A stretch of DNA of 24,000 bases from Promethearchaeati archaeon (GTDB lineage: Archaea > Asgardarchaeota > Heimdallarchaeia > Heimdallarchaeales > Heimdallarchaeaceae). The notes beneath the pieces were generated by a model. It was not told where the DNA came from and ran no database searches. It saw only the letters and a list, made by a program, of their open reading frames with translations. The stretch spans positions 111-24,110 of the forward strand of contig JABLTJ010000025.1 in assembly GCA_013166775.1 (NCBI GenBank). The letters are read 5' to 3'. How positions within the stretch are numbered: the stretch's first letter is position 1; the number at the start of each line of letters is the position of its first letter. Shown here piece by piece: positions 788-23,847 of this stretch. Position numbers and translations under genes: made by a program.

Positions 788-1606
788 TCAAAAAGATAAG
801 CTATCACTCAGTTCAATACAAAAAGTGATATCAAATAATATGGTTGAAAATAGAATCAATTTTCTATCAATAACATTTTCTTCATCTAACACATTAGAAT
901 TTTGAAGAAGAGAAGAATAGAAATTCACTAGAGCACGAAGTAGATTTCTAGCTAGCTCTTCTTGCTCCCAATTATTAAAATCTCTATGTTCAAAATCAAA
1001 ATATTTATTGTAAACTTCCGCTACTAGACTGAAGGATATTCCTACTTCTGGGAAGGATTGGAGAAATTCTCCAGAATTTACTTTCTTATTTAAGTTTTCT
1101 ACTGTTTTTCTTATCTTTTCTTCAATATTATATTCTTTAGTTAAACCATATTTTGATAGAAATAATTCAGAAGCGTTATCAGAAAGAATGTACTTTGCTG
1201 TAGGGAGATATTTAAGTTCCTCATCCACAATTTCAAAAAGATCAAACAACTCCCAATCAATGAAACCAGTGAATGTATCAAATCCCTTTAATCCGTATTC
1301 ATTCATTATATTTTCTCTAGACCTTTTTCCATAAATAATATCAATGAATCTTTCTTTTTCTTTTTTGTAAAAATTCTTAAAATTAACAAAAACGGTAATT
1401 TTCTCCTTAATAGTAAAATCACAGTAATCGCATTTTTCTTTATCAACACTTAGAGGATTTTTGCAATTTGAACATAGCTTTTTGTCACCATGTAAAAAGA
1501 CACCACACTTGGCACATAAATCATTATTTGAATTATTGAAAGTATTACAGTTAACACATGGGTAAACGGAAAAAACAGTTTCTTCAGCAGCCATTTTTAC
1601 TTCCAT
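788..1606 (-). CDS. Double zinc-ribbon protein with a C-terminal helical domain (hypothetical)
   Basis: 272-aa ORF. The N-terminus carries four CxxC pairs (CVNC...CAKC, then CSNC...CDYC), which fits two tandem zinc ribbons. The rest is predicted helical. It lies on the same strand as, and about 100 nt downstream of, the Rab-like GTPase gene. Confidence 0.6.
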   Translation of the reverse strand: MEVKMAAEETVFSVYPCVNCNTFNNSNNDLCAKCGVFLHGDKKLCSNCKNPLSVDKEKCDYCDFTIKEKITVFVNFKNFYKKEKERFIDIIYGKRSRENIMNEYGLKGFDTFTGFIDWELFDLFEIVDEELKYLPTAKYILSDNASELFLSKYGLTKEYNIEEKIRKTVENLNKKVNSGEFLQSFPEVGISFSLVAEVYNKYFDFEHRDFNNWEQEELARNLLRALVNFYSSLLQNSNVLDEENVIDRKLILFSTILFDITFCIELSDSLSF

Positions 1607-1663
1607 TTAACATACTTAACTGTACATTTAAGCTTTGCGAGGCAAAAATAAAGCAGATGAATG

Positions 1664-1685
1664 AAAATGAAAGAGAAAAGAAAAA
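1664..1685 (-). terminator. Oligo-T tract cluster (candidate archaeal terminator) downstream of the Rab-like GTPase gene
   Basis: Read on the minus strand, runs of T5, T4 and T4 (tttgaTTTTTcTTTTctctttcaTTTTc) begin about 23 nt after the GTPase stop codon (1708-1710). Archaeal termination commonly uses oligo-T. The AT-rich background makes this call weak. Confidence 0.3.
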
Positions 1686-1707: not shown

Positions 1708-2295
1708 TTAGATGATATATTCTTCTCGGAATTTCATGTGCTCATTACTGAATTGATGAGAGAGGCGACTGGCATGATAAAAGAGTTTGTCAACGTTGTG
1801 AGAGGAAAGAGCAGAGGTTTCAACGTAATCAAAACGACGGAGACGAACATAGTCGAGAATAGCATCTTTGTCAACAGAACGAGCATCAACAAGATCGAAT
1901 TTGTTACCACAGATGACGATAGGGATGTCGGGGCATTTACCAATAACCTCATTGACCCAAATTTCGACATCGTCGAAGGAGTTCTGGTTGGTGATGTCGA
2001 AAATGATAACGGCGCAGGTAGCACCAGCATAGTATTTGGGGCGGAGATAGGTAAACATCTCTTGGCCTCCCGTGTCCCATAGACTCAGCCTTAAAGTCTC
2101 TGGTTCACTATATAATTTCTTTGTTAAATTTTCATTTAGTTGTTCTTCTGTTAATGTTATTGTTTTTGTCAGCCATGATACACCTAATGTTGGTATGTAG
2201 CTGTGTATGAAAGTGTTTAACGTGAATCTTCTTGCTAAGCTTGTTTTTCCCACAAATGCTGATCCTACACAAATTATTTTTTGTAGTTGATTCAT
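1708..2295 (-). CDS. Rab-like small GTPase (Ras superfamily)
   Basis: 195 aa. G1 is GSAFVGKT, switch I is YIPTLGVSW (compare Rab YxxTIGVDF), G3 is WDTGGQE, G4 is GNKFD and G5 is ETSAL. The segment WDTGGQEMF...YYAGATCAVIIFDITNQNSF aligns by eye with Rab WDTAGQERF...YYRGAHGIIVVYDVT. There is no C-terminal Cys prenylation motif (the protein ends REEYII). A GGAGA Shine-Dalgarno-like motif sits inside the 3' end of the upstream gene. Confidence 0.9.
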   Translation of the reverse strand: MNQLQKIICVGSAFVGKTSLARRFTLNTFIHSYIPTLGVSWLTKTITLTEEQLNENLTKKLYSEPETLRLSLWDTGGQEMFTYLRPKYYAGATCAVIIFDITNQNSFDDVEIWVNEVIGKCPDIPIVICGNKFDLVDARSVDKDAILDYVRLRRFDYVETSALSSHNVDKLFYHASRLSHQFSNEHMKFREEYII

Positions 2296-2299
2296 TTTT

Positions 2300-3148
2300 C
2301 TATCTCCACACTATTGTTAAAACATCCTGTACTAAACTTAATCCGAGCATTCTTTCCCATTCTCTTTTCATTATCGTTGGTAATTTGTACGAAATTATTT
2401 GTCTCAGACCTTCTTTTCCGAATTGTTCATCCAGATATTCAATTATATTCTTCATCAGAAGTATGAATTCTCTTTTTACTTCTGTTGTTGTCCCTTTCTG
2501 TATATCCACTTCACAGAAATCAAATCCTTCTTCTTCTTCAATTTTGAACTCTTCTTTCAAATGGTAAGTATTACTCTCAATATAATTTCGGAAATTCTCT
2601 ATTATTGATTCAATAGTTACTTCTTTCTCTGCTGCGCTTTCCACTATGTACATCCTTATACCAAGCCATACAGAGTTAAGTATATTTTCAAAAACTTCTA
2701 TCATGTTTCTCTTATCTATATCTTCAATATGCAGATCTAAAACATTCCACAGCATAAAGGAGTGTGCGAGAGACTCTGATACTTCTCTCCTCTTTATTCC
2801 TTCTAGTTCTAACAGAAACTCATTTGTGCTTTCTTCATCCGTTATTTCAAAAGCGTTTAGAAATAATTTCATGAAGAAGAATAATTGTGAGGAAACCATA
2901 TCTGTTGAATAATTAGGTGGGCTTAAAAGAACAAACAGAAAGGAGTACTTACTCATGAATAAAATTTTGGAGTTCTTAAATTTCAAAACCTGTAATTCGT
3001 TAAGAGTTGGTTGTTCTTCTGTTTCTTTGTAAAATGAAAGTAGTAATCGAATGATAGCATCTACTTCTGTTTCATCAGTACTTATCTTTAATGGCCTGCA
3101 AAATAGCACGTCCATCTTTTCTTTATTTATGATGTAGAATCCCATCAT
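2300..3148 (-). CDS. Hypothetical protein with an N-terminal longin-like module plus a helical C-terminal domain; candidate partner or regulator of the Rab-like GTPase
   Basis: 282-aa ORF. Its TAG stop (2300-2302) is only 4 nt from the GTPase ATG (2293-2295). Residues 1 to about 110 show a beta-beta-alpha-beta-beta-beta-alpha hydrophobicity pattern (GFYIINKE / DVLFCRPL / EVDAIIRLLLSFYKE / LQVLKF-SKILFMS-FLFVLLS / MVSSQLFFFMKLFLNAF). The fold call is an inference from residue patterns, not a database hit. Confidence 0.65.
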   Translation of the reverse strand: MMGFYIINKEKMDVLFCRPLKISTDETEVDAIIRLLLSFYKETEEQPTLNELQVLKFKNSKILFMSKYSFLFVLLSPPNYSTDMVSSQLFFFMKLFLNAFEITDEESTNEFLLELEGIKRREVSESLAHSFMLWNVLDLHIEDIDKRNMIEVFENILNSVWLGIRMYIVESAAEKEVTIESIIENFRNYIESNTYHLKEEFKIEEEEGFDFCEVDIQKGTTTEVKREFILLMKNIIEYLDEQFGKEGLRQIISYKLPTIMKREWERMLGLSLVQDVLTIVWR

Positions 3149-3275
3149 TATTCGAGCAACTCTTCAAGGATTAATGTGAGAAATTTATCTCTTGATTATA
3201 TATTTAAAATAACATATAGGCAACATTAATCTCGAAACATGAAAAAGAAGTTTGATGGTTTTACTTTATCAATTT

Positions 3276-5489
<2,214 letters not shown>

Positions 5490-7255: not shown

Positions 7256-8509
7256 TTACTTGGTATAAATCACAAGTTTTCTGTTTATTATATTGTGCTT
7301 TCTCCCAATCTGAACAGGTAGTTTTACATTGAATAATGTACTTTTAGTTTGAAACTCTAATTTGCAGTTTTTAGCAATCTTTTGATAATCAGGATATATT
7401 GAATAATCTTGCGAATATCTATATTCAGGAATGATTAGGATAACCCGATGACCTGTCTTTAGATATTCCACACTTTTTTGTAAAACCTTTGTATAGAGTT
7501 TTTCCAGCATGGTCATTGTATCCTTAGCTTTTTCTTTGGTTGGTAGTTCCTTGATGAAAGGACCAAGATATGGTTCAGTTACCAGTCCTCCAATTTTAAT
7601 ATCAATTACTTCGTTGAGATTTTGAGAATCAAGAAGGTATATCGACCACTTGTCTTTCATTCGTTCCTTAGAAGGAAATTTCATTGAGAAATGATTTAAA
7701 TTAGCTTTACTTGCCCTAACACTTTTTGGATCTCTATCTATTCCTATTGCTTGTAAGTTTTGTTTAAGTCCTTCCAGTAAAATTGTTCCTGTTCCACAAA
7801 AAGGATCAAACAAAACATCTCCTTCCTGTATTTTTGAGAGATTCACTAGAGTCCTAGCTAATTTTATTGAAGTACCATGAGTAAAGAGCCGAACTGGTCT
7901 TTCTTCATCTTGTTTTATGTCCTTAAGTGGATTAGTTACCCACTTTAGATGTCCAATAAAAATTGTTGATTTTATAACCAAGCAAGTTATTTCAATTCCT
8001 CGCTTATGAAAATTTTCTTTGAAAAATTGATATGGGGATAATTCAGATGTCTCTTTTTTTGGGGAACGGATTTTTGATTCAAAAAGTAAATCAGATGATG
8101 TTTGATATATAGATTTCTTGATTATACTATTGAGTTGTTTTCTAATTGTAATTGTAGAAGTTTGGATATTTATTGAAAACTTAATTTTTCTTGTTTTCTG
8201 AATTGGTAAAGTTTGAAGTGTTTTTTTAAGATAAGCAATAATTTTAGGTTTCAACTCATTTAAGTCATTCACTTTTTCTTCAAGCTCAATAAAACCTGCT
8301 TTAATTATACTCCCAGATTTTTCCAGAGATTTGATCAATTTGGTCTGTTGTTCTTTACTCAATTCCAGTAAAAGATATTTTTTCCATTCCTGGAACTTTA
8401 ACTCCGTTATCGAAAATTCTTCCAAAATCGACGATAACTCTAGCTTAGACAATTCACCGTTAGCTCCTAGTTTTATAAAAGTGTTGAAAGAGAGTGACAT
8501 TTTAATCAT
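7256..8509 (-). CDS. Class I SAM-dependent RNA methyltransferase, Trm11/Trm-G10 (UPF0020)-like
   Basis: 417 aa. SAM motif I is VLFDPFCGTGTILLEG, followed by AIGIDRD. The N-terminus (KLGANGELSKLELSSILEEF) resembles the N-terminal ferredoxin-like domain seen before THUMP in Trm11-type enzymes. Motif IV reads VTEPYLG instead of the canonical (D/N)PP(Y/F). The start codon overlaps the FEN1 stop (TAATG). Confidence 0.7.
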   Translation of the reverse strand: MIKMSLSFNTFIKLGANGELSKLELSSILEEFSITELKFQEWKKYLLLELSKEQQTKLIKSLEKSGSIIKAGFIELEEKVNDLNELKPKIIAYLKKTLQTLPIQKTRKIKFSINIQTSTITIRKQLNSIIKKSIYQTSSDLLFESKIRSPKKETSELSPYQFFKENFHKRGIEITCLVIKSTIFIGHLKWVTNPLKDIKQDEERPVRLFTHGTSIKLARTLVNLSKIQEGDVLFDPFCGTGTILLEGLKQNLQAIGIDRDPKSVRASKANLNHFSMKFPSKERMKDKWSIYLLDSQNLNEVIDIKIGGLVTEPYLGPFIKELPTKEKAKDTMTMLEKLYTKVLQKSVEYLKTGHRVILIIPEYRYSQDYSIYPDYQKIAKNCKLEFQTKSTLFNVKLPVQIGRKHNIINRKLVIYTK

Positions 8510-20139: not shown

Positions 20140-20544
20140 ATGCGGGTTATCCACATGGCATTTGGCATAACTTTTGAGAATAAAACAGCGGAATTAAAAT
20201 CCACGTTAAGTGATTTAAAGATAAAAGTACCAGAGATAGAAAGTGCAGCGATTGTTTCAATCGAAGGATTACCTATAGCATCTGTTCTACCTCAAGAAAT
20301 CGAAGAGGCAAGGTTAGCAGCGATGACTGCAGCGATGCTTTCATTGGGAGAGAGAGTAGCTCAAGAAATGCAAAGGGGAGAGTTAGAGAAGATTTTCATT
20401 GAGGGGGCATATGGATATATTATAACGATTGCTGCAGGACAAAATGCCGTATTGACAGTTTCTGCGAGGAAAGAAGCAAAACTGGGTCTAGTCTTTCTAG
20501 ATATGGCAAGAGCTGGACAGGAAGTCGAAAGGCAGCTGAGTTAA
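20140..20544 (+). CDS. Roadblock/LC7 domain protein (second copy)
   Basis: 134 aa. Signature: VPEIESAAIVSIEGLPIASVLP ... AAMTAAMLSLGERVAQEM..GELEKIFIEG..GYIITIAAG.NAVLTV. An alternative start is at 20155 (MAFGI...). Confidence 0.88.
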   Translation: MRVIHMAFGITFENKTAELKSTLSDLKIKVPEIESAAIVSIEGLPIASVLPQEIEEARLAAMTAAMLSLGERVAQEMQRGELEKIFIEGAYGYIITIAAGQNAVLTVSARKEAKLGLVFLDMARAGQEVERQLS

Positions 20545-20665: not shown

Positions 20666-21574
20666 ATGGAAATTACTACTGAAAGACATAGAAGAAACGA
20701 AGATTTAGTCGTTAGACTAGGAAAACTGGAAGAAGAAATTAGTTTTTTTAAGAAGAAAAGAGATGAACATAACCAATTGACAAAGGAAGTTTTAACCAAA
20801 CGAAACGAATTCAATGAGCAAATTAATGAAGATTTAGCAAAAGCAAAAGATTATACAGCTAAAAGAGATGATTTAAACTCCCAAGTAAAACAATCAAAGC
20901 AAAAACGAAAAATACTACAAGATAAGGTTAAGGAAAATAAAAAGGTTCTAGAAGAAGTAGTAGAAAAAGATCAAGCACTAAAAAAGGACAATATAAGAAG
21001 AAAACGAAGAAGTATGCGTAGTCTTAATGAGAATATTAATAAAATAGAATGGGATTTACAGACAAGTGTTTTAACTTCAGAGAAAGAAAAGGAAATGGTA
21101 CAACTTCTTGAAAAACTTTCAGAACAATTAAATAAAATAGCAGAAGAAGTTCATATAACTTCTCAACAGACACAAATGTGGAAGGAGATTTCTGTAGCAC
21201 AAAGGGAGATTAATATATTACATATTCAGATTATTGATGCAGCAAAAGAATCACAAATTTACCATAATTTAATGAATCAAAATTATCACCAAATAAATGA
21301 ATTAAGAAAGCAAGCAAATGATAACCATAAAAAATTCTTGAGTTTCAAAAAGCAATCGGATACTTTTCACCGTGATTTCTTATCGAAAGTAGCAGAAAAA
21401 AATGAATTGAAAGGTGAATTGAGGGAAAGCAAACAAAAAATCAGAGCCGAGATACGAGAAAAGAAGCAAGCAAATCTAGAAGAAAATACACAAAAAGCAT
21501 ACGAGAAATACGAGAGGGGAGAAAATCTCTCACTAGATGAATTTAGATTGCTTGTGGAAAAGGGAATGATTTAG
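20666..21574 (+). CDS. Archaeal coiled-coil protein (COG1340-like)
   Basis: 302 aa, almost entirely heptad-like Lys/Glu/Asn-rich helix. Recurring KRDE.N / KRNEFNEQI / KRDDLNSQV segments resemble the uncharacterised archaeal coiled-coil family COG1340. The family assignment is from memory, not a search. Confidence 0.65.
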   Translation: MEITTERHRRNEDLVVRLGKLEEEISFFKKKRDEHNQLTKEVLTKRNEFNEQINEDLAKAKDYTAKRDDLNSQVKQSKQKRKILQDKVKENKKVLEEVVEKDQALKKDNIRRKRRSMRSLNENINKIEWDLQTSVLTSEKEKEMVQLLEKLSEQLNKIAEEVHITSQQTQMWKEISVAQREINILHIQIIDAAKESQIYHNLMNQNYHQINELRKQANDNHKKFLSFKKQSDTFHRDFLSKVAEKNELKGELRESKQKIRAEIREKKQANLEENTQKAYEKYERGENLSLDEFRLLVEKGMI

Positions 21575-23067: not shown

Positions 23068-23847
23068 TTACTCGTAAAAATCATCTCTTTCTCCCCAATC
23101 TCTTTCCATTTGTCCAATTAATGTGTCAATGTTGTGTCCTGTATTTGCACTTATAGGTATTAAATCACCTGTAGTTTTGAATTGTTCCAGTATCTCCATT
23201 ATACTCAAGCCAAGTTGTTGAGACAAGGAAGTTTGTCCAACGCTCTGAATATCTGCTACTAGAGAATCTGGGGATTCTATCCAATTTTCCAAATTTTCCA
23301 TTTGCTCTTTTTCTATAATATCATCTTTTGATATTGCGACAATCTGAGGAAGTGAAAGCTGAAAAGCAACTGATATACTTAGCAGTAAGATACTTGAGAA
23401 ACCTTCAGGTCGCATTGCTAAAGAAGGATCTATAAGAAAAACCGAAGTAGGCTGACTTTCGTCAGATATAACAGAAGAAACTAAACGACCACTACTTCTA
23501 TACGCAAACAATTCAATTTGCCCTGGGGTATCAACTAGCAAATATTCTGGGCCGATGTAATCAATTTCTGCTTTTATTTCGTCGATTTTAGTTGCAATTA
23601 AATCCATACTTGCAATCATAGCACCATTTGGTCCTAGATCCAGTTTCTCAGTAAGATTATCTATATTAACCAAATCACGAACATCAATATCAGGATTATA
23701 AGGTAATCTCCTAACTCCTGCATCAAGATTTAGTGTAGCTACATCCAGATGTTTTTCATTGAACCAATCATACAAGGTTCTGGTAAGTACTGTTTTTCCA
23801 CTCCCCGCTGTACCCAACATAAATATTACATAAGACCTTTGAGCCAC
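23068..23847 (-). CDS. GPN-loop GTPase (Npa3/XAB1-like)
   Basis: 259 aa. P-loop GTAGSGKT, eponymous GPNG (LDLGPNGAMI), and DTPGQIELF. The start codon is GTG (23845-23847). Confidence 0.93.
   Translation of the reverse strand: MAQRSYVIFMLGTAGSGKTVLTRTLYDWFNEKHLDVATLNLDAGVRRLPYNPDIDVRDLVNIDNLTEKLDLGPNGAMIASMDLIATKIDEIKAEIDYIGPEYLLVDTPGQIELFAYRSSGRLVSSVISDESQPTSVFLIDPSLAMRPEGFSSILLLSISVAFQLSLPQIVAISKDDIIEKEQMENLENWIESPDSLVADIQSVGQTSLSQQLGLSIMEILEQFKTTGDLIPISANTGHNIDTLIGQMERDWGERDDFYE

Follow-up and report, generated by a model that had tools for sequence, protein, structure and literature searches.

A longin-domain protein and a Rab-like GTPase encoded by adjoining genes in Heimdallarchaeaceae: a candidate GTPase-regulator module

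Results and discussion

Structure of the gene pair

The DNA analyzed here is a stretch of 24,000 nucleotides (nt) from a Promethearchaeati archaeon of the family Heimdallarchaeaceae (contig JABLTJ010000025.1, positions 111 to 24,110; assembly GCA_013166775.1), referred to below as the window, and the subject of the analysis is a pair of adjoining genes on its minus strand. The upstream gene is an open reading frame (ORF) of 282 amino acids (aa; 2300–3148, minus strand, identified by ORF reading), the product of which is composed of a longin domain (residues 1–103, 2840–3148) and a helical C-terminal domain (residues 104–282, 2303–2839), while the downstream gene is an ORF of 195 aa (1708–2295, minus strand) that encodes a Rab-like small GTPase. 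The 3' end of the longin-protein gene reads GTG TGG AGA TAG and is followed by a 4-nt intergenic spacer, AAAA (2296–2299, minus strand), and then by the ATG of the GTPase gene (2293–2295). Directly before the stop codon TAG (2300–2302), the final two codons (Trp-Arg) form a Shine-Dalgarno-like GGAGA (2303–2307), which lies 8 nt from the GTPase start codon. An earlier note on this DNA had described this junction, and the stop codon, the 4-nt gap and the embedded motif were all found on the minus strand as it had said.

Conservation and distribution of the pair

Relatives of the longin protein were sought by a word-indexed search of 5.8 billion proteins, which yielded 55 sequences, and all of those with organism names derived from Heimdallarchaeaceae, Heimdallarchaeota or 'Asgard group' metagenome-assembled genomes (MAGs). 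When 1.84 billion cluster representatives were searched exhaustively with a profile, the protein was found in 11 clusters only. The GTPase has a similar profile, its orthologues being at least 55% identical within Heimdallarchaeaceae, with the next matches dropping to 38% and 34%. No relatives of the pair, eukaryotic or other, were detected outside this family in those protein searches, and the most divergent named carrier, Ca. Heimdallarchaeum, belongs to it as well. Judged by sequence, both protein families are thus confined to Heimdallarchaeaceae.

The gene neighborhood was then compared across this family by scanning one genome per GTDB species, which gave 20 loci, and by tracing four divergent members (28–33% identity) to six further contigs. 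The GTPase gene directly follows the longin-protein gene in 20 of the 20 scanned loci and on all six further contigs, that is, in 27 of 27 genomes when the window is counted. The adjacency proposed as a check by the earlier note is therefore conserved over the full span of sequence divergence in the family. The pair is kept even where the longin proteins share no more than 28–33% identity and where the upstream neighbor differs (locus L021), and each locus contains one gene of the longin-protein family. In one locus (L010), tblastn gave an additional match to residues 127–195, the C-terminal third of the GTPase (75% identity; 7608–7814), which lies some 170 nt past the intact GTPase gene and is possibly a partial duplication or a gene remnant.

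All 27 junctions were analyzed with the GTPase start anchored after the longin stop codon. The spacer measures 2 to 6 nt in every genome, and GGAG(A/G/T) is present within the last longin-gene codons in 25 of the 27, the remaining two having GGTGA overlapping the stop codon. Both the spacing and the Shine-Dalgarno-like motif are retained although the flanking genes differ in several loci (L021, L022, L024 and L025). As none of the 27 genomes lacks this junction, we considered it more than a product of chance. In the two deviating loci (L016 and L018, junction at about 6850), CGG serves as the terminal Arg codon, by which GGAG is lost, and the GGTGA spans the stop codon TGA; as far as the sequence tells, this is an alternative way to retain a Shine-Dalgarno-like signal. 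The GTPase start codon in these two loci is GTG instead of ATG.

Transcription signals and the upstream CDC48 gene

A TATA-box-like A/T-rich element, TTTTAAATATATAA, lies 48–61 nt upstream of the longin start codon (3196–3209, minus strand) and is a candidate promoter of a two-gene unit. Most of the 26 related loci have a comparable A/T box about 40–60 nt ahead of the longin start codon, and in many of them a GGTTG/GGTGA motif occurs near this codon. At the other end, a T-rich tract with two T5 runs, located 25–66 nt past the GTPase stop codon (1644–1685, minus strand), is a candidate archaeal terminator, and runs of five or more T are present within 90 nt past the GTPase gene in most related loci. 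Because the TATA-like box precedes the longin-protein gene and the T-runs trail the GTPase gene, the pair looks like one transcription unit, and a two-gene unit with coupled translation would be the simplest reading of the sequence. The same signals, together with the short gap and the conserved Shine-Dalgarno-like motif, lend good support to the co-expression of the two genes, which the earlier note had considered almost certain.

The upstream neighbor of the pair is a gene for a CDC48-family AAA ATPase (3276–5462, minus strand; NCBIfam TIGR01243, 1092 bits). The 127 nt that separate it from the pair hold a T5 run downstream of the CDC48 stop codon and then the TATA-like box, and the CDC48 gene is probably a separate transcription unit. 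It is the same-strand upstream neighbor in 25 of the 26 related loci, including the most divergent genomes; the exception is L021, where another small GTPase gene takes its place and the pair persists. As the gene order of this region is broadly conserved over more than 20 kb in Heimdallarchaeaceae, the link to CDC48 may be plain synteny. Two loci (L022, 9748–10470; L023, 8653–9375) encode a protein of about 240 aa that weakly matches SNAP (soluble NSF attachment protein), and two others (L025 and L026, 6485–7204) one of about 240 aa with faint tetratricopeptide repeat (TPR) matches. These SNAP-like and TPR genes lie a few kb from, or beside, the block of CDC48, longin and GTPase genes, and their matches are weak and their position variable. 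Given that NSF is a relative of CDC48, a SNAP-like match near CDC48 is suggestive.

The N-terminal longin domain

The full-length 282-aa protein was modeled with AlphaFold2 on an alignment of 27 sequences (predicted local distance difference test score, pLDDT, 79). DSSP analysis of this model assigned strands to residues 3–8, 13–19, 53–56, 61–67 and 70–76 and helices to residues 26–43, 82–99 and 105–115, the last of which (α3) runs on beyond the longin domain to residue 115. The order of elements in residues 3–115 is hence β-β-α-β-β-β-α-α, and the N-terminal helix of Roadblock-type domains is absent from the model. A Foldseek search against the PDB matched residues 1–115 only, and it retrieved the σ subunits and the μ N-terminal domains of the AP-1, AP-2 and AP-3 adaptors, ζ-COP, Sec22b, VAMP7 and MON1A-CCZ1, with a probability of 1.00 and E-values from 3e-4 to 1e-2, and also GATOR1. 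The AP σ/μ and ζ-COP subunits were the best structural matches (E from 3e-4 to 3e-3; 19–21% identity to the μ N-terminal domains), the superposition with Sec22b gave a root-mean-square deviation of 2.4 Å over 99 columns, and the Roadblock proteins (LAMTOR, LC7) ranked below the longins. The β-β-α-β-β-β-α longin pattern that the earlier note had read from the N-terminal residues was thus reproduced by structure prediction.

Sequence profiles were less informative. The only recurrent Pfam match in the longin-protein family was Fuz_longin_1, the first longin domain of Fuzzy/Mon1/HPS1, which 12 of the 18 members hit at E ≤ 1 (4e-4 at best, all below threshold), the 282-aa protein itself scoring 15.3 bits against a cut-off of 26.1. 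No curated Pfam family matched this protein above threshold, NCBIfam and PADLOC searches returned no match (PADLOC was also empty for the GTPase), and full-length, N-terminal and C-terminal profiles found nothing significant in the PDB. Element order and similarity to solved longins thus agree with a longin fold, whereas the score against the curated sequence profile stays below its cut-off. On the strength of the model, the longin assignment is supported at the level of the fold, and the subfamily is left undistinguished by the close Foldseek scores. Across the family, which spans 28–100% identity, invariance within the longin domain is limited to hydrophobic core positions and S87.

The C-terminal helical domain

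Residues 104–282 were also modeled alone, which gave a helical bundle with a pLDDT of 83.7 and a predicted template modeling (TM) score of 0.73. The bundle contains two helices of about 45 residues (128–171 and 221–262) and one β-hairpin (202–210). Foldseek found no fold match to it in the PDB (best E 1.1, probability <0.1), the ferritin-like helical bundles among the hits being noise with a TM-score of about 0.2, and nothing significant was found with its sequence in Pfam, NCBIfam or PDB sequences. Except for the β-hairpin, the description of this part in the earlier note as helical, devoid of a recognizable motif and uncharacterized was borne out, and on these sequence and model comparisons the domain is previously undescribed.

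The C-terminal part is where most of the invariant polar residues of the protein fall (E114, S124, H140, N148, E151, N155, E263, W264, R266 and W281). H140, R147, N148, E151, N155 and N158 are conserved polar residues that occupy one face of the first long helix, and the invariant residues could form an interaction or catalytic surface, since they are polar and lie on one helical face. A conserved motif in residues 145–158, DKRNMIEVFENILN, resembles the 14-3-3 signature (E)RNLLSVAYKNVVG. A weak match of this domain to 14-3-3 proteins (E 0.14) falls on RN(L/M)xEV..N. Kinship to 14-3-3 proteins was rejected, as the matches had E-values of 0.14–0.36, the phosphate-binding positions were unmatched and no 14-3-3 protein was retrieved by Foldseek; the resemblance is probably a chance similarity between amphipathic helices.

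The Rab-like GTPase

The earlier note had called the downstream gene clearly Rab-like, and the searches left no reason to revise this. The 195-aa protein matched Pfam Ras with E = 1.7e-42, followed by Roc (1e-27) and Arf (7e-10), its nearest PDB relatives were Rab6, Ypt1, Rab5, Rab22 and Ran (E about 1e-28), and its orthologues are labeled 'Rab family GTPase' by NCBI. Motifs G1 to G5 are complete (G1 GSAFVGKTS, G2 T36, G3 WDTGGQE, G4 GNKFD, G5 ETSAL), and the catalytic Gln is retained as Q78. Both this completeness and the best similarity to Rab proteins place it in the Rab family, of which the family-specific motifs are kept in part only (YYAGA, IIFDIT). Switch I consists of Y33-I34-P35-T36, and this YIPT is found in 26 of the 27 orthologues aligned, YMPT being present in the other one.

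Comparison with Rab6 and Ypt1 revealed, as a gap in the HMMER alignments, a 15-residue insert (residues 46–60, ITLTEEQLNENLTKK; 2116–2160, minus strand) in the interswitch hairpin β2-β3. It is present in 27 of 27 orthologues, specific to this family, and contains the motif LNxN(L/M)xK, in which the Leu, the second Asn and the Lys are invariant. None of the 27 orthologues carries a C-terminal prenylation Cys, the window protein ending in KFREEYII. Eukaryote-style prenylation is excluded because of the lack of this Cys.

Comparison with known systems

The longin fold repeatedly binds small GTPases in solved complexes, namely Mon1-Ccz1-Rab7, TRAPP-Ypt1, SRX-SRβ and GATOR1/folliculin-Rag (PMC10933270, PMC12383261). 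A close parallel in gene arrangement are the MglB-MglA operons of bacteria and archaea, where a small α/β partner of the roadblock/longin superfamily is likewise encoded immediately upstream of its small GTPase. Our pair differs from them in that the partner has the longin order of elements, no N-terminal helix and an additional helical domain of 180 residues, and in that the GTPase reads DTGGQE with the catalytic Gln, where the GTPase of a classical pair present in the same window (10555–11476) reads TVAGQ. An MglA/MglB module was accordingly rejected, the partner being longin-type without a Robl_LC7 match; the partner-first order is common to both. We regard the pair as a variant of the known prokaryotic pairing between a GTPase and a partner of the roadblock/longin superfamily.

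Tri-longin guanine nucleotide exchange factors (GEFs) acting on Rab proteins (Mon1/Ccz1, Fuzzy/Inturned, HPS1/HPS4) resemble the system in the Fuz_longin_1 match, in the presence of MON1A-CCZ1-RAB7A among the Foldseek matches and in their Rab-like GTPase partner. Membership was rejected, as the 282-aa protein has one longin domain instead of three and its residues 104–282 are helical. A second Fuz_longin_1-like protein, of 323 aa, is encoded elsewhere in the window (14937–15908, minus strand; E = 4e-5, 24.3 bits, just below the cut-off of 26.1). Two longin/roadblock-like α/β modules can be made out in it by eye, and its family comprises 43 relatives, all from Heimdallarchaeaceae/Heimdallarchaeota MAGs. 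When it was compared with the 282-aa protein as a candidate paralogue, i.e. a Mon1/Ccz1-like second subunit, neither BLASTP nor hhalign (probability 0.1) gave a significant similarity. It could still be a dimerization partner of the 282-aa protein.

Several further assignments were dismissed. A DENN/folliculin-type protein is contradicted by the lack of a Pfam DENN match and of any solved structure resembling the C-terminal domain (best E 1.1), and a longin SNARE (Ykt6, Sec22, VAMP7) by the lack of a SNARE or synaptobrevin match at E ≤ 1. The 282-aa protein ends in LTIVWR, with no hydrophobic tail and no Cys anchor, and its long C-terminal helices are predicted to pack as an intramolecular bundle, unlike a SNARE motif with its anchor.

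SRX, the longin-like domain of SRα, forms with SRβ a one-to-one complex of a single longin fold and a small GTPase. The window pair likewise joins a single longin-fold domain to one small GTPase, but SRX, an effector of an Arf-like GTPase, is fused to the NG domain of the signal recognition particle (SRP) receptor, and there is no NG domain in the 282-aa protein. The AP and COPI longin subunits (σ, the μ N-terminal domain, ζ-COP), to which the N-terminal domain is structurally most similar, consist of a longin alone or a longin with a μ-homology domain and reside in heterotetramers with α-solenoid subunits, whereas the window protein combines a longin with a helical bundle and has a GTPase as its gene partner. 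Among Asgard archaea, Liu et al. described a predicted operon, present in most of them, of a LAMTOR1-like Roadblock protein, a Rab-like GTPase and a DENN protein with a proposed GEF role (bioRxiv 10.1101/2020.10.19.343400). It is similar in joining an Asgard Rab-like GTPase to proteins of the roadblock/longin world. It differs in that the window pair consists of two genes, is restricted to Heimdallarchaeaceae and has a C-terminal domain unlike any Pfam family or solved fold, DENN included. In the literature searched, we found no published description of this longin/Rab-like GTPase pair.

Proposed function and alternatives

These observations led us to propose that the two genes form a bicistronic, translationally coupled operon encoding a dedicated two-protein GTPase module specific to Heimdallarchaeaceae, in which the partner binds the GTPase and controls its nucleotide state, a reading to which we assign a probability of roughly 0.6. 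A dedicated, stoichiometric partner of the GTPase is the most likely identity of the longin protein, because of the strict adjacency, the translational coupling, the identical narrow distribution, the GTPase-binding fold and the partner-first order, which is that of the Roadblock/MglA-like pair of the window. According to this proposal, the longin/helical protein would bind the co-produced Rab-like GTPase directly and at a fixed stoichiometry, and would control its nucleotide state. Of these two steps, direct binding is quite probable, and for an action in the nucleotide cycle we see even odds. A GEF-like role would be favored, since the GTPase, having its own catalytic Gln, would be expected to depend on assistance for nucleotide release. 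A role as GTPase-activating protein (GAP), or GTP-state-specific binding as an effector or scaffold, may be considered as well, and the GEF role is somewhat more likely than the GAP role because the GTPase keeps the catalytic Gln and the longin domain has no conserved Arg. The functional surface is likely to comprise the polar stripe H140, R147, N148, E151, N155 and N158 together with E263, W264 and R266, and the β2-β3 insert of the GTPase is likely to be the specificity determinant for the partner. The candidate GTPase-regulator module of the earlier note thus stands as a candidate, in which 'regulator' is inferred from fold, synteny and shared distribution.

Several points weigh against this proposal. 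Direct binding is inferred through guilt by association, and an adjacency kept among the fairly close relatives of one family carries less weight than one kept across phyla would. Longin platforms are usually dimeric, yet each locus holds a single longin-family gene. Within the longin domain, conservation is lowest in helix α1, the face with which longin/roadblock platforms hold GTPases in known complexes: in its region (residues 21–50) 13% of positions are at least 83% conserved, compared with 52% in α2. The hallmarks of known longin regulators are also missing. The Mon1-Ccz1-type GEF mechanism needs a switch-I Tyr followed by a basic residue (Y37-K38 in Ypt7; PMC12383261), and the GTPase has YIPT in place of Tyr-Lys/Arg. 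Longin-domain GAPs (FLCN, NPRL2, SMCR8/C9orf72) have a GP motif and an Arg finger in β1-β2 (PMC12290439), and the corresponding β1-loop-β2 segment, GFYIINKEKMDVLFCRPL, contains no GP, while its R18 gives way to K, D or another residue in divergent members. The specific hallmarks of the eukaryotic longin GEFs and GAPs invoked by the earlier note were thus not recovered, neither a tri-longin architecture nor a DENN core, a switch-I Tyr-Lys or a GP/Arg-finger motif being present.

Because of the conservation pattern, the sequences suggest that the helical domain, and not the canonical α1 platform, may be the functional core. In its strongest form, which we consider unlikely, this domain would be a new catalytic or switch-reading domain for Rab-like GTPases, with a GEF/GAP fold unrelated to Sec7, Vps9, DENN, TBC, TRAPP and tri-longin proteins, which would be mounted on the longin platform, act through H140/R147/N148/E151/N155 and E263/W264/R266 and read the interswitch insert. 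Such a switch might also couple to the neighboring CDC48 unfoldase.

An alternative reading is that the longin protein is no regulator but an effector or coat adaptor that would be recruited by the GTP-bound GTPase, like SRX by SRβ-GTP or the AP/COPI subcomplexes with longin subunits by Arf1, and whose helical domain would carry the output. The AP σ/μ and ζ-COP subunits at the top of the Foldseek list, the absence of a GEF or GAP signature from the longin domain and the position of the conserved polar surface outside the α1 platform all speak for such a protein. We nevertheless hold it to be rather improbable, since the AP/COPI longin subunits bind α-solenoid large subunits and not a GTPase, no large-subunit gene adjoins the pair at the loci examined, the scores of the longin subfamilies (E 3e-4 to 1e-2) are too close for an assignment, and a strict 1:1 translational coupling fits obligate partners or regulators better than effectors. 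A far less likely idea is that the longin/helical protein serves CDC48 as a GTPase-controlled adaptor or substrate-targeting factor, in loose parallel to NSF (the CDC48 relative), SNAP and the longin SNAREs. In 25 of the 26 related loci, those with 28–33% identity among them, the CDC48 gene does immediately precede the pair on the same strand, and the weak SNAP-like/TPR gene is a few kb off in L022/L023 and the faint TPR gene beside the pair in L025/L026. However, the 127-nt spacer with its T5 run and TATA-like box separates CDC48 from the pair, CDC48 is 84–95% identical across genomes and lies within a block of conserved gene order, the pair persists without it in L021, and the 282-aa protein, which ends in WR, matches no SNARE, UBX, SHP or other CDC48-adaptor family.

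Such conserved order also raises the question of whether the two genes are merely inherited side by side, the role of the 282-aa protein being unrelated to the GTPase, as all carriers belong to one archaeal family with broadly conserved gene order over more than 20 kb. We think this very doubtful in view of the spacing of 2–6 nt and the Shine-Dalgarno-like motif, which are kept despite changed flanks, of the same narrow distribution shared by the two families, and of the strong record of the longin fold in pairing with GTPases.

Significance of the pair

Small GTPases and longin/roadblock proteins each number in the dozens in Asgard archaea, and the matching of regulators to GTPases is largely unsettled. 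In the cultured Lokiarchaeon MK-D1, GTPase genes generally do not form operons with longin or roadblock genes, so that partners are difficult to match (Tran et al. 2024, PMC10933270). The pair reported here is a naturally matched, small two-protein system for asking whether, and in what way, an archaeal longin protein acts on a Rab-like GTPase, and its helical domain and GTPase insert might point to a mode of regulation that is not known from eukaryotes. Heimdallarchaeaceae belong to a class in which the closest relatives of eukaryotes have been proposed to lie. Two things temper the value of the pair: it is narrowly distributed, and no orthology to a GEF or GAP of eukaryotes can be demonstrated. 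Since it is confined to one archaeal family and devoid of eukaryotic hallmarks, the pair is not evidence for an ancestral eukaryotic GEF; it is lineage-specific and not demonstrably ancestral, and the description 'ancestor-like' in the earlier note had to be dropped, as no relative of either family was detected outside Heimdallarchaeaceae.

Other genes in the window

The gene directly downstream of the GTPase gene (788–1606, minus strand) encodes a protein of 272 aa that has a double zinc ribbon at its N terminus and a C-terminal region without family assignment. Among the related loci it was found in L004 only and on the opposite strand, and it is for this reason not part of the conserved module. 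The classical pair mentioned above is composed of a 99-aa Roadblock/LC7 protein (10555–10854, plus strand; Pfam 6e-21) and, starting 49 nt after its gene, a 190-aa Arf/MglA-like GTPase whose G3 region is TVAGQ and not DxxGQ (10904–11476, plus strand). The partner gene comes first, as in the longin/Rab-like pair. This Roadblock/MglA-like pair is also adjacent in L022 and L027, and in L021 an MglA-like (TVAGQ-type) GTPase gene is located directly upstream of the longin/Rab-like pair. Farther along the window, a second Roadblock/LC7 protein, of 134 aa (20140–20544, plus strand), is encoded next to a DUF7121 protein (20666–21574, plus strand), followed by a GPN-loop GTPase (ATP_bind_1; 23068–23847, minus strand), and this arrangement of the three genes was seen again in L027.

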